From the NCBI GenBank assembly GCA_031459385.1, contig JAVKIP010000021.1, positions 1 through 48,169 of the forward strand: a stretch of 48,169 nucleotides of DNA, in the 5' to 3' direction. The translations under genes were made by a program, and so were the position numbers. The stretch comes from Candidatus Fervidifonticultor secundus. GTDB lineage: Bacteria > Sysuimicrobiota > Sysuimicrobiia > Sysuimicrobiales > Humicultoraceae. Positions 7,222 through 24,763 of the stretch are shown piece after piece (position 1 is the stretch's first letter; the number at the start of each line of letters is the position of its first letter). The notes beneath the pieces were generated by a model. It worked only from the letters and a program-made list of their open reading frames with translations, made no database searches and was not told the origin of the DNA.

Positions 7222-8739
7222 GTGGCCACGCGCGTTGCAACCGTACGGCATCCCGGGCCATACCCCACTGTCCCTGCCACGCGGGGCTGGTACGCATTGG
7301 TGACGGCGCTGCTGGCGCTGGTGGCGCTGGGGTTCTACGCCTACTCCCGGCAGGCGACCGAAGGCCTGGTGGTGACCGGCCTGCGCGACCTGGGCCCGGG
7401 AGGCGGCGCCGCCTGGGGGCTCTATATCGCCTTCGACGTCTATTTCGTGGGCGTGAGCTTCGCGGGCATCACCATGGCCGCCCTGATCCGGCTGCTGCAG
7501 CTGGAGCGGCTGCGGGTCGTGGCGCGCATCGCCGAGACGCTCACGGTCATCGCGCTGCTCCTGGCCGCCCTCAGCGTGCTGCCCGACCTGGGCCAGCCCC
7601 TGCGGGGCATCGTCAACCTGTTCCGCTACGCGCGCCCGCAGTCACCGTTCTTCGGCACCTTCACCCTGGTGATCGCCGGCTACCTGTTCGCCAGCCTCGT
7701 CTACCTCTACCTGGACGGACGGCAGGACGCCGCTCTGTGTGCCCGGACGCCGGGGCCGTTCCAGTGGTTCCACCGCCTGTGGGCGGCGGGCTACCGTGAT
7801 ACGCCGGCGGAACGTGAGCGCCATGAGCGCACCAGCTTCTGGCTGGCCATCGCCATCGTCCCGCTGCTGGTCACCGCGCACTCGACGCTGGGCTTCGTGT
7901 TCGGGCTCCAGGTGGGCCGGCCGGGCTGGTTCAGCGCGCTGCAGGCCCCGGCGTTCGTCATCCTGGCCGGCGTCTCCGGGGTGGGGCTCCTGGCGGTGGT
8001 GGCGGCCCTCCTGCGCACCGCCCTGGGCGAGCAGGAGCGGCTGGGTCCCGAGATCTTCCGGTGGCTGGGGACGTTCCTGATGGTGCTGATCGCAGCCTAC
8101 CTGTACTTCATGATCGTGGAATGGCTGACGACCATGTATGCCGGCCACACGCAGGAGGTGCGGGTGACGCTGGCTATGCTGGCGGGCCGCTACGCGTGGA
8201 TCTACTGGACGTCGGTGGCGGCGCTGGTGGGCGCGTTCGTAGTGGTGGTGTTGCCGGCGCTCCCGGCGCCGGTGGTGGCCTGGCTCCCGGCGGGCCTGCC
8301 GCGCCTGGCGCGGCCGCTGGCGGCAGCGGCCATAGTGGCAGCGGGTGTGCTGATCGTCCAGTTGGTCCCAGCCGCCCACCACGTGGGCCTCACGCTGCCG
8401 CCGCCGGTATGGACCTGGCTGCCCAGGCTGCTCATCGTGCTGGTGGCGCTGGTGGTGCTCTCGATCCTGCCGGTGGTGCGTACCAACGTTGTGGCGGGCA
8501 CCACTACCGCTGGCCTGCTGGTGAACGTCGCGGCCATCGGCAAACGCTACCTGATCGTCGTCCCATCGCAGACCCACGGCAGCCTCCTGCCCTACGGCAC
8601 CGGAGCCTACGCGCCGACGTGGGTGGAGTACGGGGTGATCCTGGGGGTGGCGGCGCTGGGCGCGCTGCTGTTCGCGCTGTTCGCGCGAGTCTTCCCTCTG
8701 CTCCCGGTGGAACTGCCCGGCGAAGGGAGGAGCCACTGA
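7222..8739 (+). CDS. NrfD/PsrC-family membrane anchor / quinol-interacting subunit
   Basis: WGLYIAFDVYFVG, DLGQPLR, QSPF, HSTLGFVFG, KRYLIVVP, YAPTWVE; many hydrophobic segments. Confidence 0.9.
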   Translation: MATRVATVRHPGPYPTVPATRGWYALVTALLALVALGFYAYSRQATEGLVVTGLRDLGPGGGAAWGLYIAFDVYFVGVSFAGITMAALIRLLQLERLRVVARIAETLTVIALLLAALSVLPDLGQPLRGIVNLFRYARPQSPFFGTFTLVIAGYLFASLVYLYLDGRQDAALCARTPGPFQWFHRLWAAGYRDTPAERERHERTSFWLAIAIVPLLVTAHSTLGFVFGLQVGRPGWFSALQAPAFVILAGVSGVGLLAVVAALLRTALGEQERLGPEIFRWLGTFLMVLIAAYLYFMIVEWLTTMYAGHTQEVRVTLAMLAGRYAWIYWTSVAALVGAFVVVVLPALPAPVVAWLPAGLPRLARPLAAAAIVAAGVLIVQLVPAAHHVGLTLPPPVWTWLPRLLIVLVALVVLSILPVVRTNVVAGTTTAGLLVNVAAIGKRYLIVVPSQTHGSLLPYGTGAYAPTWVEYGVILGVAALGALLFALFARVFPLLPVELPGEGRSH

Positions 8740-8959: not shown

Positions 8960-9679
8960 ATGGGGGCACGGACACGGCGCGCGGGCCGGTCGCACACGAT
9001 GATCCCTGTGGGTGCCGCTGGCACGGGCACGCTGGCCGTCCTGCGCGAAACGCTCTACCGGCTCCTGGCCGTGCTGTTGCTGTATCCCACGCCGGCCCGG
9101 TTGCGCACGGCGACGGTGCTGGCGGATGCTCTGGCGGTGCACGACGATGCGCTGGCCGCCTTGCCCTGCTACCTGCAGTGGCGGCGGGTGCGGACCGCGA
9201 TAGAGACCGGCCCGCACACGGTGCTGGAAGACGAGTTCGCCCGGCTGTTCCTGGTCCCACCCCGGACCCCACCCTGCGAAACCGCGTACAGTGTAGCGGA
9301 GCCGCAGTGGGTGCTGGCCGACCTGACCGGGGAGTACGCCGCCGCCGGCGCGGCGTTGGCGGCGGAGGTGGGGGAACCACCCGACGCGGCGACGGTCGAG
9401 CTGGAGTTCATGGCCTACTTGTGCGGGCGCGAGCGCGAGGCGTGGGGGCACCATGCCGCCGACGCGGCCGCCGTCCTGGCCCGCGAGCACCGCTTCCTGC
9501 AGCGGCACCTGGTGCGCTGGATGCCTGCGTTCGCCCACGACGTGGCCTGTGCGGCGCCGAAGAGCTTCTACGCCCAGCTGGCCGACATGGCCGGCGCCTT
9601 CGTGCTTTGCGACCGCGACCTCGTCGACCTCGCGCGCACCTGCCTGCGGCGCACGGCCGCCGTGCCGCTGCGCGCATGA
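8960..9679 (+). CDS. TorD/DmsD-family molybdoenzyme maturation chaperone
   Basis: EFARLF, PPCETAY, EPPDAATVELEFMAYL, FLQRHLVRW. Start uncertain (ATG 8960 or 8999). Confidence 0.88.
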   Translation: MGARTRRAGRSHTMIPVGAAGTGTLAVLRETLYRLLAVLLLYPTPARLRTATVLADALAVHDDALAALPCYLQWRRVRTAIETGPHTVLEDEFARLFLVPPRTPPCETAYSVAEPQWVLADLTGEYAAAGAALAAEVGEPPDAATVELEFMAYLCGREREAWGHHAADAAAVLAREHRFLQRHLVRWMPAFAHDVACAAPKSFYAQLADMAGAFVLCDRDLVDLARTCLRRTAAVPLRA

Positions 9680-9695
9680 CCAGCGCCCGGCCCCG

Positions 9696-11318
9696 GTGAT
9701 CGCCATCCTGCTCTGCGCAGACCTCGAGACCCCAGGCGCCGGGATCGACCTGGCCGCAGTGGCCACCTGGCTGGAAGGAACCATTCCGCAGGCCCGCGTG
9801 CAGGTCGTCCCCGACCTGTGTGGACACCCAGGACGCATCGCGCCCTCCCTGGCGCAGCGCGCGCCTGAACGCGTGGTGCTGGGCCTGTGCACGCGCCCAC
9901 GCGCTCGGGCTGACCTGCAGCGCGCGATGCGCCGGGCCGGTCTCGACCCCCTGCTGGTGGAGACCGTCGATCTCGGCGCATGTGCCGCCCGCGCGCACCC
10001 GCGGGCGCATGCCACGGCCAGAGCCAGAGCGCTGCTGGCCGGTGCTGCGGCCAGGGCCTGCACGGCGCAGCCCACCCGTCCCGAGCAGGCACGGCCCGTG
10101 GCCCGCGTGCCGCTCAGCCGACGCGCCCTGCTGCACCTGGCCTGGCTCGACTACGAGAGCGTGCCCGTGGTGGCTGCCGACCGGTGCCGGGCCGGACGCG
10201 GGTGCGCGCTGTGCGCCGATGCCTGTCCGCGCGCAGCCCTGCGGGTGGTCGACGGCACGGTAGAGCTTGACCGGCAGACCTGCACCGCGTGCGGACTTTG
10301 CGTGACGGCGTGCCCGTCGGGGGCCGTGGAACTGCCAGGGGCAATGCCCGCGCAGATCGAGGCCCAGCTGGCCGCGCTCCTGGAGGCTGCGGGGAGCGAG
10401 CTGGGCCCGCCGGTCATCGTCTTCACCTGCCGGCACAGCCCGGGCGATTTGGGGACGCGCCGGGGTGAGACGCACCCGCCGGGCTGGCTCCCGGTCGAGG
10501 TCCCGTGCGTCGCGATGGTGCCGCCCGCGTGGCTGCTGGGGACGCTGGCGCTGGGAGCCGCCGGGGTGGTCGTGCTGCCAGCCGCGGCCGGGTGCCCCGA
10601 CGGGACGGCTGCCCAGGTCGCCGCGCGGGTGGACTACTGCCGCGCGGTGTTGCGCCGGCTGGGGGAACCACCGGAACGGGTGACGGCACTGCCGGCCGGG
10701 AACCGGCCGGCGAGGCGCACAGGGGTCAGTGCAGCGCCCGGACTCGCGGCCGCCGCAGGGCCGCGACCGTCAGAAGGCTTCCTCGCGCCGGGCAGCTGGG
10801 CCCGCCTCTTCCTCCATCTGGCCAGCGTGAGTGACCCGACTGCGGCATGGCACATCGCGCATCCGCACTCGCCCTTCGGCGTCGTGGACGTGGGCCCAGG
10901 CTGCACGCTGTGCGGGAGCTGCGTCCGCGCCTGCCCCACCGACGCGCTCACGCTGGCGCACGACGCCGCAGGCGTGGCCGTGGTCTTTGCGCCCGCACTG
11001 TGCGTCGGATGTGGCCGGTGCGTGTCCGCCTGCCCGGAGGCCGGCATGCTGCGCCTCGAGCGCGTCACCGACCTGGCGCGGCTGCGAGCGGGCCCTGCGA
11101 CCCTCGCGCACAGCCCGCACCGGCGGTGCGCGCACTGCGGGGCCGCCTTCGCCGCCGAGGCGATGGTGGGCCGGATCGCCGCGCTGCTCGCCGACGTGGC
11201 CACCGCAGACGTCGTCACCCGCTACTGCCCGGACTGCCGGGCGGTCGCCGGAGGGCGGCTATCGGGCGGTGGCCCGGGGGTGCGCGGGGGTATTCCGCTC
11301 GCGGCGCTCGAAGGATAG
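9696..11318 (+). CDS. Polyferredoxin with HdrA-N-terminal-like and MvhD-like segments
   Basis: AILLC...DLC...VVLGLC...AGLDP...CAARAH..ATARARALL (HdrA N-terminus-like); CALCADAC, CTACGLCVTAC; IVFTC...VPCVAMV (MvhD-like); CTLCGSCVRAC, CVGCGRCVSAC; CAHC...CPDC. GTG start inferred. Confidence 0.75.
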   Translation: MIAILLCADLETPGAGIDLAAVATWLEGTIPQARVQVVPDLCGHPGRIAPSLAQRAPERVVLGLCTRPRARADLQRAMRRAGLDPLLVETVDLGACAARAHPRAHATARARALLAGAAARACTAQPTRPEQARPVARVPLSRRALLHLAWLDYESVPVVAADRCRAGRGCALCADACPRAALRVVDGTVELDRQTCTACGLCVTACPSGAVELPGAMPAQIEAQLAALLEAAGSELGPPVIVFTCRHSPGDLGTRRGETHPPGWLPVEVPCVAMVPPAWLLGTLALGAAGVVVLPAAAGCPDGTAAQVAARVDYCRAVLRRLGEPPERVTALPAGNRPARRTGVSAAPGLAAAAGPRPSEGFLAPGSWARLFLHLASVSDPTAAWHIAHPHSPFGVVDVGPGCTLCGSCVRACPTDALTLAHDAAGVAVVFAPALCVGCGRCVSACPEAGMLRLERVTDLARLRAGPATLAHSPHRRCAHCGAAFAAEAMVGRIAALLADVATADVVTRYCPDCRAVAGGRLSGGGPGVRGGIPLAALEG

Positions 11319-11390: not shown

Positions 11391-12356
11391 ATGGTGCCTG
11401 CGCGGCAACGCTCCGCTTCACTGCACCTCGACCCAGCTGTCGAGCCCACTACCAAGCCCGTCGTATCGGACAGACCCGACGCGGCCTCGCGCCGCGGCTT
11501 CCTGAGAACGCTCGGCGCCAGCGCCGCGACCCTGATGGCGCTGGACATCCTGGAAAGCCTCGTCGCCCCGCCGGCGGCTGACGCGGCGACCGCAGCCCCC
11601 GCGCCGGCCCCGACGAAGGCCCCACCGCCGCCGGCCGGCGCTGCCGACCCGGTGCCGCCCGACGTCCTGGTCCGCATGCGGGCCGACCTCGAGCGCGCCC
11701 TGGCCAAGCCCGCCACCCAGCGGCAGTGGGTAATGGTCATCGACCTGCGCAAGTGCGTGGGGTGCAGCGCGTGCACCATCGCCTGCGTCGCCGAGAACAA
11801 GCTGCCGCCGGGCGTGGTCTACCGGCCGGTCGTAGAGGAGGAGCTCGGCACCTACCCGAACGTCACGCGCCGGTTCCTCCCACGGCCCTGCATGCAGTGC
11901 GACAACCCCCCGTGCGTGCCGGTCTGCCCGGTGAGCGCGACCTACAAGCGCCCCGACGGCATCGTCGCCATCGACTACGACGCGTGCATCGGGTGCCGGT
12001 ACTGCATCGTGGCCTGCCCCTACAACGCCAGGGTGTTCGACACCGGCGAACACTACACCGACGGGACCCCGGAACTGAACCTCGTCGAGCGCCTGCCGGC
12101 GTTCGAGTACGGCCAGCGGCGCACCCGCGAGCGCGACGCCTCCCCGGTGGGCAACGCCCGCAAGTGCCACTTCTGCACCCACCGGCTGGAGGCCGGGCTG
12201 CTGCCGGCGTGCGTGACGACCTGCATCGGCCGCGCTACCTTCTTTGGCGACGCCAGCGACCCCGACAGCCTGGTCAGCGAGCTGATCGCCAGGCCCAACG
12301 TCATGCGCCTGAAAGAAGATCTGGGGACGCGGCCGCGCGTCTACTACCTGCTGTGA
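11391..12356 (+). CDS. Tat-signal 4Fe-4S subunit, TtrB/SrdB-like
   Basis: [47 protein letters not shown]...CVTTC. RBS GGAGGAGG. Confidence 0.9.
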
Positions 12357-12366
12357 GGAGGAGACC

Positions 12367-13592
12367 ATGAAGCGCCTGCTCTACGCAGTGTGGATCGCGG
12401 CCTTCGTCCTGGGCCTGTGGGGCGTGTGGGAACGCCTCACCCTCGGGCATCGCCTGACCGGGTACGGGTCCTACATCGTCTGGGGACTGTGGGTGTCGGC
12501 CTACATCTACCTGGTCGGCCTCTCGGCCGGCGCGTTCCTGCTGTCGTCGCTCATCTACGTCTTCGGGGTCCAGCGCCTGGAGCGGATCGGCAAGCTCGCC
12601 CTGTTCACGGCCATCGTCACGCTGCTGGTGGCGCTGCTGTCCATCTGGTTCGACCTGGGCCACATGAGCCGGTTCTACGAGGTCTACACCCGTCCCAACT
12701 TCCGGTCGATGATGGCCTGGATGATCTGGCTCTACTCGGGCTACTTCGTGCTGCTGCTGGCCGAGGGGTACCTGGTCTTCCGTCCTGACCTGGTGCGGTG
12801 GAGTCAGGACGCCACGCGGTCCCCGTTGCAGCGGACCGTGGCCCGCTGGTTCACCCTGGGCCGCACCGCGCTGGACGAGGCCACGCTGGCGGCCGAGCGG
12901 CGCTGGGTGCAGGTGCTGGGTACCATCGGCGTGCCGCTGGCCATCGCCTTCCACGGCGGCGTCGGCGCCCTCTTCGCCACCGTCAGCGCCAAGCTCTACT
13001 GGCACCAGTCGCTGGTGCCCATCCTGTTCCTGACCGGCGCGCTGGTCTCCGGCGGAGGCCTGCTAACCGCCCTGGTGGCGTTCGCGTGGCGCCAGCGCGA
13101 CGGAGAATATCGCAACCTCGTAGCCCTGCTCGGCCGGCTGCTGCTGGTCCTGGTCCTGGTGGACGTCCTGCTGGAGTGGGCCGAGTTCTCAATCCCGCTG
13201 TGGTACGGCACCAGCCCCGAAGGGCAGCTGCTGCGTCAGGTGCTGTTCGGCCCGTACTGGTGGGTCTTCTGGCTGGTGCACGTGCTGCTGGGAGTGGTCA
13301 TCCCGGTCGTGCTGCTGGGCGCGCGGGGCCGGCAGCCTGCGGCCGTGGGGACGGCCGGACTGCTGGTCGCCGCCACGTTCATGAGCGTCCGCCTCAACGT
13401 CGTCATCCCCGCGCAGATCGAGCCGGCCCTGCGCGGCCTGGAACGAGCGTTCGTCAGTCCGCGCCTGGTGTTCCAGTACGCCCCCACCGGGCACGAGTGG
13501 CTGGTGGCGCTCTTCGTGTTGACGGTGGGTGCCGGGCTCTTCTGGGTCGGTGCCAGGTTCCTGCCCCTGCTCGAGGCGAAGGAGGTCGCGCG

Positions 13593-13596
<4 letters not shown>
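12367..13596 (+). CDS. NrfD-family membrane subunit, TtrC/SrdC-like
   Basis: [53 protein letters not shown]. Confidence 0.9.
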
Positions 13597-16840
<3,244 letters not shown>

Positions 16841-16844
<4 letters not shown>

Positions 16845-17428
16845 GCAGCCTGCGCGGGCGCGGTGCCGCGGGAGGCCGCCGTCCGGGCGAGCAGCGTCGT
16901 CGCGCCCCGGACCGGCGCCGGAGGCTGCGCCAGGGGGCATGGCTGCTGGGCGGAGCGGCGCTCGCTGCGGCGGCCGTGGCGCTGGTGATGCTCTCCGCGC
17001 GGCCGCCGGCTAGCCAGGAGTCCCAGCCGGTCGCCCTGCCATCAGGCAGCGCGGCAGGGGCATCGCTCGAACTGGTCCTCTACCAGCCGCCCACCTGAGC
17101 GTGCTGCACCAGGTACGCCGAGTACCTGGCGGCGTCGGGGTTCCCGGCGCGGGTCATCAAGACCGACGATCTGGCAGACATCAAGCGCCGCCATCGTGTC
17201 CCCCACGACCTGGCGAGCTGTCACACCGCGGTGGCCGGCGGCTACTTCATCGAGGGCCACGTGCCCGTCGCGGCCATCGCACGGCTGCTGCGCGACCGGC
17301 CGGCGGTGGCGGGCATTGCGCTGCCCGGCATGCCGCCTGGTTCGCCGGGTATGGGCGGCGTCCAGACCGGACCGCTGGTGGTCTACGCGGCATCCGACAG
17401 CGGGATCAGCGAGTTCGTGCGCTTCTAG
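16841..17428 (+). CDS. CopG/DUF411-family metal-binding protein with in-frame TGA, a candidate selenoprotein (195 aa)
   Basis: Reading through TGA 17096-17098 gives [17 protein letters not shown]...[19 protein letters not shown]...[14 protein letters not shown], which matches the DUF411 pattern (PxCGCC, SCHT, EGHVP, GMPxGSPGM). Hydrophobic N-terminal anchor. GTG overlaps the TtrA-like stop. Confidence 0.85.
17101..17135 (+). promoter_or_regulatory. Putative bacterial SECIS element
   Basis: Perfect 8-bp stem CCAGGTAC/GTACCTGG (17109-17116/17122-17129) with loop GCCGA; 18 nt separate the TGA from the loop. Lower stem GTGCTG/CGGCGT pairs with G-U. Confidence 0.75.
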
Positions 17429-17563
17429 CGAATCGACGGGAGCCTGCGGTTCTGCGGCAGTGTGATCCTGCGCCCGCTCTCGACGAACACCTCGTCAGAA
17501 GGTCTCCGGCCGTCGGCGTCGGATTCATGCATGAACGCCGTGCTGCCAGGAGGTGCAGAGCCC

Positions 17564-17881
17564 ATGGCTGTGTACCTGCCCGAAGTGTACACGCGGTTCC
17601 GGCAACTCCATCCCGACGTGGCTGCGGCGCTGGATCGGCTGGGAGCGGCTACGGAAGCCGCGGGGCCGCTTGACGCCCGGACACAGCGCCTGGTGAAGCT
17701 GGGTATCGCCATCGGCAGCCTGGCGGAGGGCGCCGTCAGGTCCAACGCGCGCAGGGCCCTGGAGGCGGGCGTCACGCCGGAGGAGATCCGGCACGTGGCG
17801 CTGCTCGCCATCACGACCCGCGGGTTTCCGGCCGCCGTCGCCGGCCTCGGCTGGATCGAGGAGGTACTGGCGGCAGGGTGA
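17564..17881 (+). CDS. Carboxymuconolactone decarboxylase/AhpD-like family protein
   Basis: GPLDARTQRLVKLGIAIG...AVRSNARRALEAGVTPEEIRH...TTRGFP. RBS AGGAGG. Confidence 0.85.
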   Translation: MAVYLPEVYTRFRQLHPDVAAALDRLGAATEAAGPLDARTQRLVKLGIAIGSLAEGAVRSNARRALEAGVTPEEIRHVALLAITTRGFPAAVAGLGWIEEVLAAG

Positions 17882-17906: not shown

Positions 17907-18680
17907 GTGGGCGTGTCGGTCCGCCTCCCGTCTCCGCTCGTCCCTGTAACGGTGCTGGACCGGGTGAACCGGTTCGCGGTGCACGCACGGGCCGGCCGCC
18001 GACGCCTGGTGCTGCACCTCCCCAACCCGGGCCGCATGGCCGAGTTGCTCGTGCGAGGAGCGCACGGGCTGGCCGCGCTCACCCCGTCGCGCTCCCGCCG
18101 GACCGCCGGCACGTTGCTCGTGGTCCGTCATCGGGGCCGGTGGGTGGGTATGGACGCCCGCCTGCCTAACCGCCTCTTCGAGGAAGCGCTCCGGACGGGT
18201 GCGCTGGCGCCCTTTCGCGGCTACCGGCGCTGGCGGCGGGAGGCGCCGCTTGGCGGTTCCCGGATCGACTTCGTCCTGGAGGGCCCCAGCGGCCGCTGCC
18301 TTGTCGAAACCAAATCGTGCAACCGGGTGGACGGCGGCGTCGCCCTCTTCCCCGACGCGCCCACCACCCGGGGCGCCGCGCACCTGCGCCTGCTGGCCCG
18401 GGCCGCGCGCGCAGGCCGGCGGGCCGCGGTGGTCTGGTTCATCCAGCGCGACGACGCGCGGATCCTGCGGCCCTTCGCCGAACTGGACCCGCAGTTCGCC
18501 CGGGCTGCGCGGCAGGCCAAGCGGCGCGGGGTCGAGTTCTATGCCTACACGTGCCGGGTGACCCCCTGGGCGATCACGGTGGACCGGGCTATCCGGGTCG
18601 CCGTGTGTGAGGCACGTTTCCAAAAATCGGCTCGTCGCCCGATTGCGCAGGCCCCTGGAGGCGCCTACAAAGAGACGTAA
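17907..18680 (+). CDS. sfsA: DNA/RNA nuclease SfsA
   Basis: RVNRF, HLPNPGRMAEL, SRIDF, LVETKSC, FPDAPTTRGAAHL, DPQFA. Confidence 0.92.
   Translation: MGVSVRLPSPLVPVTVLDRVNRFAVHARAGRRRLVLHLPNPGRMAELLVRGAHGLAALTPSRSRRTAGTLLVVRHRGRWVGMDARLPNRLFEEALRTGALAPFRGYRRWRREAPLGGSRIDFVLEGPSGRCLVETKSCNRVDGGVALFPDAPTTRGAAHLRLLARAARAGRRAAVVWFIQRDDARILRPFAELDPQFARAARQAKRRGVEFYAYTCRVTPWAITVDRAIRVAVCEARFQKSARRPIAQAPGGAYKET
18626..18671 (+). promoter_or_regulatory. Palindromic box plus -10-like hexamer (promoter of the nxr-like operon, inside the sfsA 3' end)
   Basis: ATCGGC-TCGTCG-CCCGAT (18626-18643), 22 nt, TACAAA (18666-18671). Confidence 0.65.
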
Positions 18681-18687
18681 CAGCATT

Positions 18688-18716
18688 CGTCAAAATAGCC
18701 GGATTTCTCCGATTCG
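18688..18716 (+). promoter_or_regulatory. Putative repressor (Rrf2?) operator, copy 1
   Basis: CGTCAAA-N6-GGATTTCTCCGATTCG; the last 16 nt are identical to 29303-29318. Confidence 0.55.
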
Positions 18717-18789
18717 CGGCGCCCACGTCGCAGAACCCCGGCCCCCGTGGGAGGCTCGCCCCGGGAGGCTCGCCAGGGAGGCGGCCACG

Positions 18790-21700
18790 ATGGAGGCAGA
18801 CGACGCGCGCGCCAGGCCGGTGCCGCCCGATCCCGACGCCACCGCCCCGGGGCCGTCTGGCCTGCGGCGCCGCCAGTTCCTCCAGCGCACCAGCGAACTC
18901 GCCAGCGGCGCGCTGCTGGCCCAGGCCCTGCCGCTGCAGCTGCTCCAGACGCTGTCCACCGTGCCGAATCCCTTGGAAGCCTACCCCGACCGGGGCTGGG
19001 AGCGTGTCTACCGCGACCAGTACCGCTACGATCACAGCTTCACGTTCGTCTGCTCGCCGAACGACACCCACCACTGCCGGCTGCGGGCGTTCGTGCGCAA
19101 CGGCGTCATCGTCCGCATCGAGCAGAACTACGACGTCGACCGCTACCGCGACCTCTACGGGAACCGCGCCACCCCCGCGTGGAACCCCCGGGGGTGCCTG
19201 AAGGGCTACACGTTCCACCGGCGCGTCTACGGGCCCTACCGCCTCAAGTACCCCATGGTCCGGCGGGGCTGGAAGCAGTGGGCCGACGACGGCTACCCCG
19301 AGCTGACCAACGAGCGACGCCGGCAGTACCGGTTCGACAGCCGGGGGCAGGACACGTTCGTCCGGGTCTCGTGGGACGAGGCGTACGCGTACATCGCCTC
19401 GGCCTTCATCGCCATCGCCCGCCGGTACAGCGGCGAAGACGGCGCCCGGCGCCTGCTGGCCCAGGGCTACCCGCCCGAGATGGTGGAGGCGATGCACGGC
19501 GCCGGCGTGCGCACCTTCAAGTTCCGCGGCGGGATGGGCCTGCTGGGCGTCATCGGCAAGTACGGCCTGTGGCGGGCGGCCAACATGATGGCCCTGCTGG
19601 ACGCCCACGTGCGCGGGGTGGGGCCCGACGAGGCGTTGGGCGCCCGCAAGTGGAGCAACTACACCTGGCACGGCGACCAGGCGCCGGGCATGCCCTTCGT
19701 CCACGGCCTGCAGACCTCCGACGTGGACTTCAACGAGCTGCGCTGGGCCCGCCTGCACATCCAGGTCGGGAAGAACCTCGTCGAGAACAAGATGCCCGAG
19801 AGCCATTTCTTCATCGAGCTGATGGAGCGGGGCGCGAAGATCGTCGTCATCACCCCCGAGTACAGTCCCCCCGCCACCAAGGCCGACTACTGGATGCCCA
19901 TCCGCCCCCAGACCGACGCGGCGCTTTTTCTGGGCATCACCCGGCTGATGATGGAGCGCGGCTGGTACGACGAGACGTTCGTGCGCCAGTTCACCGACTT
20001 TCCGCTGGTCATCCGGACCGACACGCTGCAACGGCTGCGCGCCCACGAGGTCTTCCCCGACTACCGGCCGGGCCTCGGGCCCGATGGCCCCAGCTTCGCG
20101 CGGCAGAACCTCAAGCCCGACCAGTACGCGAAGCTGGGCGACTTCGTGGTCTTCGACAAGAGCACCGGGCGCCTGCGGGCGCTGACCCGCGACGACGTGG
20201 GGCAGCGCATGGCCGCCAGGGGCATCACGCCTGCCCTGGTCTGGCGCGGGAAGGTGCGCCTGACAGACGGGCGCGAGGTCGAGTGCCTGACGCTGTGGGA
20301 AGCCTACCGCGACCACCTGCGCGACTACGACCTGGACACGGTGGCGGAGATCACGCAGGTGCCCAGGCGCATGATCCAGCGCCTGGCCCGCGACATCGCC
20401 ACCATCAAGCCCGTGGCCATCCACATCGGCGAGGGGATCAACCACTGGTTCCACGCCACGTTGGCCAACCGTGCGTTCTACCTGCCGCTGATGCTGACCG
20501 GGAACATCGGGAAGCCTGGCGCGGGCTGCCACACCTGGGCCGGGAACTACAAGGCGGGCATCTTCCAGGGCTCGCCGTGGACCGGCCCGGGCATCACGGG
20601 GTGGCTGTTCGAGGACCCCTTCCACCCGACGCTGGACCCCAGCGCCCACGGGAAGACGGTGAAGGTCCGCAAGTACCTCAAGGATGAAGAACCGGCCTAC
20701 TGGAACCACGGCGACGTTCCCCTGATCGTCACGACGCCCAAGGCCGGCCGCAAGGTCTTCACCGGCCAGACGCACATGCCGACGCCCACGAAGGTGATCT
20801 GGTACAACAACGTCAACCTCATCAACAACGCCAAGTGGGCCTACGGGGTCATCAAGAACGTCAACCCCAACGTCGAGCTGATCATCAACCAGGACGTGGA
20901 GATGACCGCTTCGGCGGAGTACGCCGACGTCATCCTGCCGGCCACTACCTGGGTGGAGTTCCGATCGTGGGAGCTGACGGCCTCGTGCAGCAACCCCTTC
21001 CTGCAGATCTGGAAGGGCGGGATCCGGCCGCTGTTCGACACCAAAGACGACGCGCTGATCATCGCCGAGGTGGCGGCCAAGCTGTCGGTGAAGACGGGGG
21101 ATCCGCGCTTTCGCGACTACTTCCGCTTCATCCTGGAGGGTCGCCCGGAAGTCTACATCCAGCGTATCCTGGACAGCAGTACCTCCACCGCCGGCTACCG
21201 GTTCGAGGACATCGTGGCGGGGAAGTACGGCGAGCCTGGCGCAGCCCTCATGCTCTTCCGCACCTATCCCCGGGTACCGTTCTACGAACAGGTGCACGAC
21301 AGCGAGCCGTTCTACACCGACACCGGCCGGCTCAACGCCTACTGCGACATCCCCGAGGCCATCGAGTACGGTGAGAACTTCATCGTGCACCGCGAGGGCC
21401 CGGAGGCCACCCCCTACCTGCCCAACGTCATCGTCTCCAGCAACCCGCTGGTCCGGCCCGAGGACTACGGCATCCCCCTCGATGCCCTGCACTGGGACCA
21501 GCGTACCGTGCGCAACGTCAAGCTGCCGTGGGCGCGGGTCAAGCAGACCCAGAACCCGCTGCGGGCGCGCGGCTACCGGTTCTACTGCCTGACCCCGAAG
21601 ACCCGGCACCGCGTCCACTCGTCGTGGAGCAGCACCGACTGGAACCTGATCTGGGACTCCAACTTCGGCGACCCCTACCGGCTGGACCGGCGCACGCCCG

Positions 21701-22302
21701 GGGTGGGCGAGCACCAGCTCCACATGCACCCGCAGGCGGCGCGTGATCTGGGCATCAACGACGGCGACTACGTCTACGTCGATGCCTTCGCCGGCGACCG
21801 CCCGTATCTCGGGTGGAAGCCTGACGACCCCTTCTACCGGGTGGCGCGGTGCATGGTGCGGGTGAAGTACAACCCCGCCTACCCCTACGATGTGGTGATG
21901 ATGAAGCACGCGCCCTTCATCGCCACCGAGAAGTCGGTGAAGGCCCACGAAAGCCGGCGCGACGGCCTGGCGCAGTCGGCCGACACGGGCTATCAGGCCA
22001 ACTTCCGGTATGGCAGCCAGCAGTCGGTGACCCGCAACTGGCACATGCCCATGCACCAGACCGACTCGCTGTTCCACAAGTCGAAGGGCGCTGTGGCGTT
22101 CCTCTTCGGCGGCGAGGCCGACAACCACGCCGTCAACACCGTGCCCAAAGAAACCCTGGTGAAGATCACCAAGGCCGAAGACGGAGGCCTGGGCGGTCGA
22201 GGCGTCTGGGAGCCCGCCCGCACGGGCCATACCCCTGGCCGGGAGCGGCCGTTCATGCGACGCTACCTGGCTGGCGGGCTGGTCAGGATCACGAAGGCGT
22301 GA
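18790..22302 (+). CDS. nxrA: Periplasmic-type nitrite oxidoreductase/nitrate reductase alpha subunit (Nitrospira/anammox NxrA-like), 1170 aa
   Basis: Tat RRRQFLQ; WERVYRDQY; FS0 C-x3-D-x3-C-x39-C (CSPNDTHHC...RGCLKG); RGGMGLLG; NYTWHGDQ (Asp Mo ligand); GEGINHWFH; QANFRYGSQQS; NTVPKET. Confidence 0.9.
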   Translation: MEADDARARPVPPDPDATAPGPSGLRRRQFLQRTSELASGALLAQALPLQLLQTLSTVPNPLEAYPDRGWERVYRDQYRYDHSFTFVCSPNDTHHCRLRAFVRNGVIVRIEQNYDVDRYRDLYGNRATPAWNPRGCLKGYTFHRRVYGPYRLKYPMVRRGWKQWADDGYPELTNERRRQYRFDSRGQDTFVRVSWDEAYAYIASAFIAIARRYSGEDGARRLLAQGYPPEMVEAMHGAGVRTFKFRGGMGLLGVIGKYGLWRAANMMALLDAHVRGVGPDEALGARKWSNYTWHGDQAPGMPFVHGLQTSDVDFNELRWARLHIQVGKNLVENKMPESHFFIELMERGAKIVVITPEYSPPATKADYWMPIRPQTDAALFLGITRLMMERGWYDETFVRQFTDFPLVIRTDTLQRLRAHEVFPDYRPGLGPDGPSFARQNLKPDQYAKLGDFVVFDKSTGRLRALTRDDVGQRMAARGITPALVWRGKVRLTDGREVECLTLWEAYRDHLRDYDLDTVAEITQVPRRMIQRLARDIATIKPVAIHIGEGINHWFHATLANRAFYLPLMLTGNIGKPGAGCHTWAGNYKAGIFQGSPWTGPGITGWLFEDPFHPTLDPSAHGKTVKVRKYLKDEEPAYWNHGDVPLIVTTPKAGRKVFTGQTHMPTPTKVIWYNNVNLINNAKWAYGVIKNVNPNVELIINQDVEMTASAEYADVILPATTWVEFRSWELTASCSNPFLQIWKGGIRPLFDTKDDALIIAEVAAKLSVKTGDPRFRDYFRFILEGRPEVYIQRILDSSTSTAGYRFEDIVAGKYGEPGAALMLFRTYPRVPFYEQVHDSEPFYTDTGRLNAYCDIPEAIEYGENFIVHREGPEATPYLPNVIVSSNPLVRPEDYGIPLDALHWDQRTVRNVKLPWARVKQTQNPLRARGYRFYCLTPKTRHRVHSSWSSTDWNLIWDSNFGDPYRLDRRTPGVGEHQLHMHPQAARDLGINDGDYVYVDAFAGDRPYLGWKPDDPFYRVARCMVRVKYNPAYPYDVVMMKHAPFIATEKSVKAHESRRDGLAQSADTGYQANFRYGSQQSVTRNWHMPMHQTDSLFHKSKGAVAFLFGGEADNHAVNTVPKETLVKITKAEDGGLGGRGVWEPARTGHTPGRERPFMRRYLAGGLVRITKA

Positions 22303-22322
22303 CGGCGCAGGGAGGCGCGGCC

Positions 22323-22595
22323 ATGGCCCCCAAGCCCTTCGAGCCCGACGATCCCCTGGCGCTGGTCGGCGTCGCCGTGGACGCAAAGACCGGCGCGGTG
22401 GACGAGATGGCCCGGTGCCTGGTGGAGGAGTACGTGCGCGACGGGTGGGACGCGGACCGGTTACTGGCCCTCTTCCGCAACCCCTTCTACCGGGCGCTCC
22501 ACGCGATCTATCGCGAGCGCGGCGAGGAGGCGGTGCGGGCGCTCATCGCTGAGGTCACCGGCACCTGGGGGGTATGGAGGACCACAGGGACCTGA
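22323..22595 (+). CDS. Small hypothetical protein (90 aa) within the nxr-like operon
   Basis: RBS GGGAGG; EPDDPLALVGV...MARCLVEEY..GWD...LFRNPFY. Confidence 0.75.
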   Translation: MAPKPFEPDDPLALVGVAVDAKTGAVDEMARCLVEEYVRDGWDADRLLALFRNPFYRALHAIYRERGEEAVRALIAEVTGTWGVWRTTGT

Positions 22596-22659
22596 GCACG
22601 TGCAGCCGATCGCGGTGACCATGACGGGCACGCGCAGCCGATCGCGGTGCTCATGACGG
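22596..22659. repeat. 32-bp tandem direct repeat (2 copies, 29/32 identical)
   Basis: GCACGTGCAGCCGATCGCGGTGACCATGACGG followed by GCACGCGCAGCCGATCGCGGTGCTCATGACGG. Confidence 0.85.
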
Positions 22660-22722
22660 TGAACCGGCGCACGACCCCTGCGGGGCGGGCACGGGGCCCC
22701 CGGCCGAACGGAGGCGTGCAGG

Positions 22723-23976
<1,254 letters not shown>

Positions 23977-23980
23977 GGCC

Positions 23981-24763
23981 ATGGCCGCGGCAGGCGCTGA
24001 CACCGTCGACGCCGTCGCTCGTGCCCTGTGGCGCAGCGCCGTCTACCGGTTCTTCTCGCAGGCCCTGCTCCCACCGGACCGGTGGCGGGAGCCGCCTGTG
24101 CCGCCGGGGCCGCGTCCGGCCGGCACCGCAGCCGGCGGGGAGGACGCCGGTGCGCCCGCCAGCACGACCGACGGCCCGGCCACCGCCGTGGCTGCGGCAG
24201 CACGCACCCTGACAGCGGCCGACCCCCCGGCACTGGCCGCCGCCTACGTCGAGACCTTCGGGCACCTCGTGGGGCCCCGCTGCCCGCTCTACGAGGCCCA
24301 GTATATCCCCGGCGGCATCTTCGCCCAGGCGCAGTGCGCCAGCGACATCGCCGGCTTCTATCGGGCGTTCGGTCTCGAGGTGGCCGACCACGCGCAGGAG
24401 CGCCCGGACCATATCAGCGTCGAGCTGGAGTTCATGCACGTCCTGGCATACCGGGAAGCGTATGCCCGCACACACCACGGTTGCGCGCAGGTCGCGCAGC
24501 TGGTGGACGCGCAGCGCCAGTTCCTCCAGGACCACCTTGGACGGTGGGTGCCAGCGCTGGCCCGGGTCACACAGACCGAGGCTCCGGGCCTCTACGCGCA
24601 GGTGCTCGACGCGTTGACGGCGTGGATCACGGCCGACGCGGCCGCACAGGGTGCGACCGTCGAGCCCGAAGCCGCGCTGGCGCCGCGGGCCGACCTCCCG
24701 GGTCTCGAGGACGACCGGGCAGGGTGCGGGCCCGCACGCTGCCCGCTGGGGGTCGTCCCGTGA
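23981..24763 (+). CDS. TorD/DmsD-family chaperone of the NXR-like enzyme
   Basis: CPLYEAQY, DIAGFYRAFG, ERPDHISVELEFM, FLQDHLGRW. Confidence 0.9.
   Translation: MAAAGADTVDAVARALWRSAVYRFFSQALLPPDRWREPPVPPGPRPAGTAAGGEDAGAPASTTDGPATAVAAAARTLTAADPPALAAAYVETFGHLVGPRCPLYEAQYIPGGIFAQAQCASDIAGFYRAFGLEVADHAQERPDHISVELEFMHVLAYREAYARTHHGCAQVAQLVDAQRQFLQDHLGRWVPALARVTQTEAPGLYAQVLDALTAWITADAAAQGATVEPEAALAPRADLPGLEDDRAGCGPARCPLGVVP

Follow-up and report, generated by a model that had tools for sequence, protein, structure and literature searches.

The window analysed here, a stretch of 48,169 nucleotides (positions 1 to 48,169 of contig JAVKIP010000021.1 of Candidatus Fervidifonticultor secundus), contains at 16841..17428 a genuine selenocysteine (Sec)-type copG gene that gene callers cut in two. 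The probability that the gene is intact, that its product is a membrane-anchored or secreted protein of the CopG/DUF411 family, and that its codon 86, a UGA, is decoded as Sec is put at about 0.9. Sec is almost certainly inserted at this codon, and selenium would thereby replace sulfur at the first Cys of the copper-binding motif.

A single reading frame with one internal TGA

Open reading frame (ORF) finding reports two pieces at this locus, 16841-17098 (85 aa) and 17231-17428 (65 aa), which lie in an identical frame; translation of the full interval encounters only one stop, the TGA at 17096-17098, before the terminal TAG at 17426-17428. The original prediction, made from the DNA letters, had described a single gene split in this way by the ORF track and had proposed that read-through gives YQPPT-U-ACC followed by intact SCHT, EGHVP, and GMPxGSPGM motifs. 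Translation bears out both descriptions: the read-through product (P0001) has 195 residues, with SCHT, EGHVP, and GMPPGSPGM present after the TGA. The GTG start codon at 16841 shares bases with the TGA that ends the preceding gene (GTGA), and in the alignment it stands opposite the ATG with which the orthologue of G002, a genome of the same genus, begins.

P0001 matches the DUF411 profile of Pfam (PF04214) from position 1 to position 48 of its 48 positions, at E 1.5e-24 and 85.9 bits (cut-off 27). The same Pfam search gave no match of P0001 to PF13192 at E <= 0.01, and a search of NCBIfam gave nothing meaningful, with no selenoprotein model matched. Among solved structures, a sequence search finds one relative, the DUF411 chain in 6WIS/6WJE (E 2.8e-21), where U86 falls on the first Cys of CGCC; Foldseek gives the title of these entries as “Copper resistance protein copG,” and their source organism is Pseudomonas aeruginosa. 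In an alignment of P0001 with 80 of 120 listed homologues (81 sequences), the invariant columns are C86, C88, C89, C127, H128, Y135, G139, H140, P142, M164, G167, and G170. The motifs C-x-C-C, C-H-T, G-H-x-P, and M-P-x-G-S-P-G-M are all found in P0001 on invariant or near-invariant columns, with the TGA codon in the place of the first C. Both the CopG alignment and the invariant column C86 agree with the earlier suggestion that the TGA sits at the first motif Cys of the family. Among the relatives, a protein of 279 aa from a JGI metagenome (P0002) consists of two complete Cys-type DUF411 domains fused in tandem.

An AlphaFold2 model of P0001 built from the 81-sequence alignment has a mean predicted local distance difference test score (pLDDT) of 84.1, with residues 81-195 at 96-98. 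The order of elements in the model is a long helix (25-51), a strand (78-82), U86, and a helix (87-98). In thioredoxin-like folds the reactive residue usually lies between such a strand and helix, where U86 falls. The top Foldseek matches are 6WJE and 6WIS, with E 5.6e-13 to 2.3e-12, a target-normalised template modelling (TM) score of 0.87-0.88, a root-mean-square deviation of 1.6-1.7 Å, and 38% identity; the next matches after the CopG structures are glutaredoxins, at E 0.02. The predicted structure thus agrees with the experimental CopG structures in having a thioredoxin-like fold. P0001 is also predicted to be exported, from its Arg-rich N-terminus ahead of the helix at 25-51 and from the N-termini of relatives, which include a signal peptide (G030) and a lipobox-like LLLAAC (L082 and L088).

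The original prediction had also called for a check of the sequence at 17096-17098. Contigs from four hot-spring metagenome runs span the TGA site with 0 differing letters and 0 gaps, so that the TGA stands without variant in four run-level assemblies; no RNA run was listed for the site. As the runs are four samples of one study, which may be the source of this assembly, an assembly slip is ruled out, but the agreement is not independent evidence.

Selenocysteine machinery, hairpin, and homologues

The genome to which the window belongs (G000; 3.3 Mb, 72% G+C) encodes the full machinery for Sec insertion. The four genes that the original prediction had proposed to look for are all present, each over its curated cut-off: selA (548.9 bits, C12:155655-157010), selB (367.6 bits, C12:153751-155619), selC, the gene for tRNA-Sec (64.5 bits, C12:151486-151577), and selD (388.2 bits, C1:104038-104961, minus strand). 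The first three are clustered at C12:151486-157010, and ARAGORN reports one tRNA-SeC(tca). The selD gene itself carries one in-frame TGA (...LVACAG-U-ASKL...), with a 7-bp hairpin of loop CGUGC about 32 nt downstream, and is a second selenoprotein gene of the organism.

Immediately after the TGA of copG lies the perfect 8-bp stem with a G-first loop that had been noticed in the letters. Its arms, CCAGGTAC (17109-17116) and GTACCTGG (17122-17129), enclose the loop GCCGA (17117-17121), which begins 18 nt past the TGA. The model for bacterial selenocysteine insertion sequence (SECIS) elements, as set out in passages of PMC13188914, describes a loop of 3-9 nt, a stem of 4-16 bp, G in the first two loop positions, a UGA-loop spacing of 16-37 nt, and a minimum free energy <= -7.5 kcal/mol. 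The hairpin falls within all four constraints to which it was compared, with a 5-nt loop (GCCGA), an 8-bp stem, a spacing of 18 nt, and -13.1 kcal/mol. Perfect 8-bp hairpins with loops of 3-10 nt occur 31 times on the plus strand of the window, and one that starts 6-29 nt downstream is found for 1.2% of positions and for 4 of 393 TGA triplets on that strand. The arginine codon AGG in the stem is rare, accounting for 5.2% of Arg codons in the long ORFs of this genome.

Conservation of pairing in this region can be followed in the relatives. The hairpin is kept in G001, G002, and G093, with stems of 9-10 bp, in a Sec clade whose fourth member is the gene of the window; in G030 and in one metagenome relative the hairpin is another one, of greater length. 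The fold around the hairpin (61 nt) has z = -1.37 against shuffles, and the 51 nt after the TGA codon have z = -2.1 in the window, -2.1 to -3.9 in its clade, -2.9 in G030, and -4.7 in L134. At loci with G+C >= 0.67, mean fold z is -2.04 for Sec forms (n = 7) versus +0.32 for Cys forms (n = 24). A strict, bulge-free SECIS model is found in 8/29 Sec forms versus 5/115 Cys forms (Fisher p 7e-4), p-values of this kind overstating the case because the relatives are not independent. Two further Sec clades, with 9 sequences between them, share a helix at columns 18-24/28-34: 95% of its cells are paired, as compared with 29-56% for slid controls, and two of its pairs are changed on both sides. A single SECIS structure common to all Sec clades was considered and failed, as the window clade pairs columns 14-21/27-34 and clades D and E pair columns 18-24/28-34. 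A second hairpin follows the first in copG; G001, G002, and G093 retain it as well, with A-U in place of one G-U pair. Its distance of 41 nt from the UGA exceeds the 16-37 nt that the model allows. Compared with Rfam at E <= 10, the interval 16700-17600 matched no SECIS family and had only three hits, all at chance level (M23, RMST_5, and ASdes).

The recoding mechanism suggested by these features is the ordinary SelB/SECIS one. SelB with Sec-tRNA(Sec) is predicted to bind the hairpin at 17109-17129 while the ribosome stands on the UGA 18 nt upstream, and Sec would be inserted at this codon in place of termination. The product would then carry U-A-C-C where the family has C-x-C-C. In CopG, a protein of thioredoxin-like fold, this motif and methionines hold a tetranuclear copper cluster, and Sec86 would therefore most likely be a selenolate ligand, or the redox partner, at that copper site, on the outward-facing side of the membrane.

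The TGA recurs in homologues. The phylum of the window consists of one class and one order with 94 species, 80 of them at >= 80% completeness, and searches at the class and phylum levels gave no genomes beyond those of the order. Searching its 94 genomes at E <= 1e-8 gave a match in 15. One TGA at the position of codon 86 is found in G000, G001, and G002, all of the same genus, and in G093 and G030, which belong to other families. Cys is encoded there in G013, G039, G036, G033, G086, and G091, and the match in G006, without an internal stop, is included in the Cys set as locus L030. Of the other three matches, one is frameshifted (G028), and two were unreadable at the codon, one having no readable CxCC motif (G089) and one being partial (G087). 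The copG of G028 (L031/L035, C12:94428-94897) is split over two frames, by a frameshift or an assembly error.

Beyond the phylum, a scan with one genome per species gave 80 loci, 5 with TGA; the carriers are four Chloroflexota genomes (Chloroflexia, Ardenticatenaceae, Chloroflexota, and Anaerolineae) and one Gemmatimonadales genome. A metagenome scan gave another 80 loci, of which 70 were readable by motif search and 19/70 had a stop at the codon. Pooling of loci L022-L200 (179) left 144 distinct readable motifs after 35 were dropped for want of a motif match, nearness to a contig end, presence of N, or duplication. At the position of codon 86, 29 of these 144 distinct loci have TGA and 115 have Cys (87 TGC and 28 TGT), proportions that are not a prevalence because the loci were found with a Sec-form query. 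TAA and TAG were found in 0 of them, an absence that is weak evidence because TGA is the sole stop one base change from TGC or TGT. The TGA-form loci have no second stop in frame. The check on relatives that the original prediction had outlined thus gave TGA or Cys at exactly codon 86, never TAA or TAG, with the hairpin kept in the Sec clade of the window.

The TGA-bearing orthologues are 48-68% identical to P0001, with synonymous divergence (dS) up to 2.4. After the TGA, the ratio of nonsynonymous to synonymous divergence (dN/dS) is 0.33 against G002, 0.38 against G001, 0.44 against G093 (first 90 codons), and 0.19 against G030; the codons that follow the TGA are under purifying selection. 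Close Cys forms exist as well, for example P0003, which is 70% identical. The selA gene scores over its cut-off in 10/10 TGA-form genomes tested and in 8/11 Cys-form genomes tested. Inside the phylum it does not discriminate between the two forms, because Cys-form genomes carry selA too.

Other explanations for the UGA and points against Sec insertion

That the gene is a pseudogene, in which a recent change of TGC or TGT to TGA killed a Cys-type copG, is one alternative, since a single base change turns either Cys codon into TGA and a relative (G028) does carry a frameshifted copy of copG. This explanation is nevertheless close to refuted by the presence of the same TGA in orthologues so divergent, with dN/dS of 0.19-0.44 over the following 109 codons, by its occurrence in 29 distinct loci with no other in-frame stop, and by selA in every TGA-form genome tested. 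A slightly better case, though still a very improbable one, can be made for a gene that is translated through the UGA by a route other than Sec, for example by near-cognate Trp or Cys, or by a code changed locally or globally. In its favor are the fact that the residue inserted at the UGA is deduced from sequence, and the failure of scripts to find a hairpin in a 14-member Sec-form clade. Against it, TGA is the stop of 676 of the 1174 long coding-like ORFs in the genome, including the gene immediately upstream, and the sole tRNA with the anticodon tca is tRNA-Sec. Moreover, the TGA occupies the place of a Cys, as it does in Sec/Cys pairs already known, together with a hairpin that conforms to the model, in a genome with full Sec machinery.

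The UGA might instead terminate translation and leave two products, a membrane peptide of 85 residues and a separately started C-terminal fragment, which is how ORF finding splits the locus. Sec insertion is never fully efficient, so that some truncated product is likely in any case. As an account of the whole gene, however, this has hardly any probability: the next in-frame start, GTG 17231, would lose C88, C89, C127, and H128, all invariant in the family, along with 44 codons conserved at the protein level, and the C-terminal fragment would be without an export signal.

Apart from the limits already attached to the locus counts and to the four metagenome runs, several observations weigh against decoding of codon 86 as Sec or against the role proposed for the product. 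Within the clade of the window there is no covariation because the stem is invariant among the four carriers of its hairpin, and the residues that the stem codons specify (R-Y...Y-L) are conserved. Weaker pairing is found at the same place in 21/115 Cys forms, as compared with 16/29 Sec forms; since Cys forms also pair weakly there, some of the pairing is a consequence of the protein sequence, and its source in the Cys forms is the W/Y-x-x-Y/H-L codons reading UGGGU...ACCUG. Over all 29 Sec forms, mean fold z is -0.55 versus +0.02 for the Cys forms, which is not significant (p 0.07), and the z-score of the whole region was dropped as a general discriminator of Sec and Cys forms. The Sec clade of 14 members referred to above (clade C: L174, L164, L145, L179, L154, L152, L141, L148, L147, L137, L196, L082, L088, and L067) has no consensus hairpin by RNAalifold; it is mostly of low G+C and includes the Chloroflexia and Ardenticatenaceae genomes. 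Finally, the copper function of P0001 is suggested by its homology to CopG. The original prediction had called the product a Sec-containing copper oxidoreductase; the checks that it had proposed, where they were run, all favor the Sec part of this description, and its copper part comes from homology to a protein whose oxidase role is itself a proposal in the relevant passages of PMC7558416.

Inspection of clade C by eye gives, for some members, only a short stem CACU/AGUG with the loop GGCUGG about 12 nt after the UGA.

Genomic setting, evolution, and known systems

Features of the copG locus and of the genes around it are collected in Table 1.

Table 1. Coordinates of copG, its internal elements, and neighboring genes in the window
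Feature	Coordinates	Strand	Remarks
copG(Sec) coding sequence, complete, 195 codons	16841..17428	+	One frame, single internal TGA, DUF411 match
Predicted membrane-spanning helix or signal anchor, residues 25-51	16913..16993	+	AlphaFold2 helix; Arg-rich N-terminus before the helix
In-frame TGA, almost certainly read as Sec (U86)	17096..17098	+	Aligned with the invariant first Cys of CxCC
Post-TGA segment, 109 codons	17099..17425	+	C88, C89, C127-H128-T129, E138-G-H140-V-P142, M164-P-P-G-S-P-G-M171
SECIS-like hairpin, 8-bp stem, 5-nt loop	17109..17129	+	-13.1 kcal/mol; fits bacterial SECIS model
Second hairpin, 8 bp, loop GUU	17132..17150	+	41 nt after the TGA
4Fe-4S protein	11391-12356	+	Apparent operon with copG
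NrfD-type membrane subunit	12367-13596	+	Apparent operon with copG
TtrA-like molybdopterin oxidoreductase	13593-16844	+	Twin-arginine translocation (Tat) signal; best NCBIfam match TtrA, E 2e-145, far below cut-off
Carboxymuconolactone decarboxylase (CMD/AhpD-like) gene	17462-17881	+	Between copG and sfsA
Second molybdoenzyme cluster	18607-24763	+	NarG/type II dimethyl sulfoxide (DMSO)-reductase-like alpha subunit, 1231 aa
4Fe-4S beta subunit, second molybdoenzyme cluster	22723-23976	+
NarJ-like chaperone, second molybdoenzyme cluster	23981-24763	+

The copG gene is the last of four cistrons in an apparent operon (11391..16844 and copG) whose stops and starts overlap. A TtrA-like gene also lies directly upstream of copG in G002, which has the Sec form, and in G013, which has the Cys form; none was seen within the 1.5-kb flank in G001. 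A functional link between copG and the TtrA-like enzyme would be speculation from position. In G001 and G002, sfsA directly follows copG, which leaves no room for the CMD/AhpD-like gene. Upstream of the ttr-like operon, 9453-11318 on the plus strand encodes a protein of 621 aa that combines several 4Fe-4S domains with an FlpD/MvhD domain and resembles heterodisulfide-reductase-associated proteins, and another gene of the NrfD family is found at 7222-8739.

How often Sec and Cys have been exchanged in this family was addressed with a maximum-likelihood tree, quickly built from the 144 domains with the Sec/Cys column masked. Parsimony on this tree gives at least 7 Sec/Cys changes, 2 of them forced by well supported branches; 65 of the 138 inner branches are unresolved. 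The gene of the window groups with those of G001, G002, and G093, all of them Sec forms. As some Cys forms already have a weak hairpin roughly 18 nt downstream of their first Cys codon, one TGY-to-TGA change could start recoding, and this pre-existing weak pairing may ease conversion from Cys to Sec in the CopG/DUF411 family, which would make the family a case of repeated Cys/Sec exchange, possibly with a hairpin already in place. In the hot-spring lineage, CopG(Sec) may serve the translationally coupled TtrA-like molybdoenzyme. A broader combined proposal, that Sec86 is a selenolate ligand of a Cu4 cluster and so forms a natural Cu-Se center in a widespread, uncatalogued family, that Cys and Sec have switched repeatedly, and that CopG serves the TtrA-like enzyme, is tentative and, taken as a whole, somewhat less probable than an even chance.

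Selenolate ligation of a Cu4 cluster in a protein of thioredoxin fold would, if true, create an unusual natural metal site. The recoding mechanism is standard, and it is the possible selenium ligand in a copper cluster that makes Sec-type CopG notable. Because close Cys forms such as P0003 exist, Cys and Sec can be directly compared within one family. Since gene callers cut copG(Sec) and its TGA-bearing relatives at the UGA, both the copper-handling capacity and the size of the selenoproteome are under-counted in these lineages.

New families of bacterial selenoproteins are still reported regularly (e.g. PMC12013277), and CopG/DUF411 is an addition to the known set, uncatalogued in the lists examined. 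There is no entry for PF04214, DUF411, CopG, or UxCC in the main text and matching table passages of the 2026 prokaryotic selenoprotein catalogue (PMC13188914), and none of the four occurs in the main text of the deep-Sep paper, of the BSepDB paper, of the GOS survey, of a 2022 review, or of a 2016 ISME J survey, or in one BSepDB supplement. Among the papers listed by full-text searches of a limited literature collection, judged by title or abstract, none links DUF411 or CopG with selenocysteine.

The systems closest to P0001 are CopG of Pseudomonas aeruginosa (PF04214; 6WIS and 6WJE) and CutG of Rhodobacter capsulatus. According to passages of PMC7558416, periplasmic CopG proteins bind a tetranuclear copper cluster via CxCC and two methionines, add to copper resistance under anaerobic conditions, and are proposed to oxidise Cu(I) and pass copper to other proteins. 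P0001 and CopG belong to the same Pfam family, with 38% identity over 122 aligned columns and a target-normalised TM score of 0.87-0.88; both have the invariant C-x-C-C, C-H-T, E-G-H-V-P, and M-P-x-G-S-P-G-M motifs, and the extracytoplasmic location of CopG is predicted for P0001 as well. Unlike CopG, P0001 has its first motif Cys encoded by UGA, has an N-terminus composed of an Arg-rich segment and a long helix instead of a plain signal peptide, and is encoded by the last gene of a ttrBCA-like molybdoenzyme operon instead of by a neighbor of copA, cus, or a multicopper oxidase gene.

Among selenoproteins, those described as thioredoxin-like Sec.1 and Sec.2 (PF13192, CxU/UxC) in passages of PMC13188914 resemble P0001 in that Sec takes the place of the redox or metal-binding Cys on the N-terminal side, just ahead of helix 1 in a thioredoxin-like fold, a hairpin for decoding lies directly 3' of the UGA, and there are many Cys-form homologues. 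P0001, however, is of another family, its motif is U-x-C-C, and its site would by homology be a metal cluster and not a dithiol/disulfide pair. The metal-related selenoproteins catalogued in the same passages include the SO_0444 family Cu/Zn efflux transporter (UxC), the CopZ-family (2Fe-2S)-binding selenoproteins, and the MerT-like and MerB-like (SaoL) proteins. Although their folds and families are unrelated to that of P0001 and none is a Cu4-cluster protein, they share with it the placement of Sec within the metal-handling motif of a heavy-metal resistance protein.

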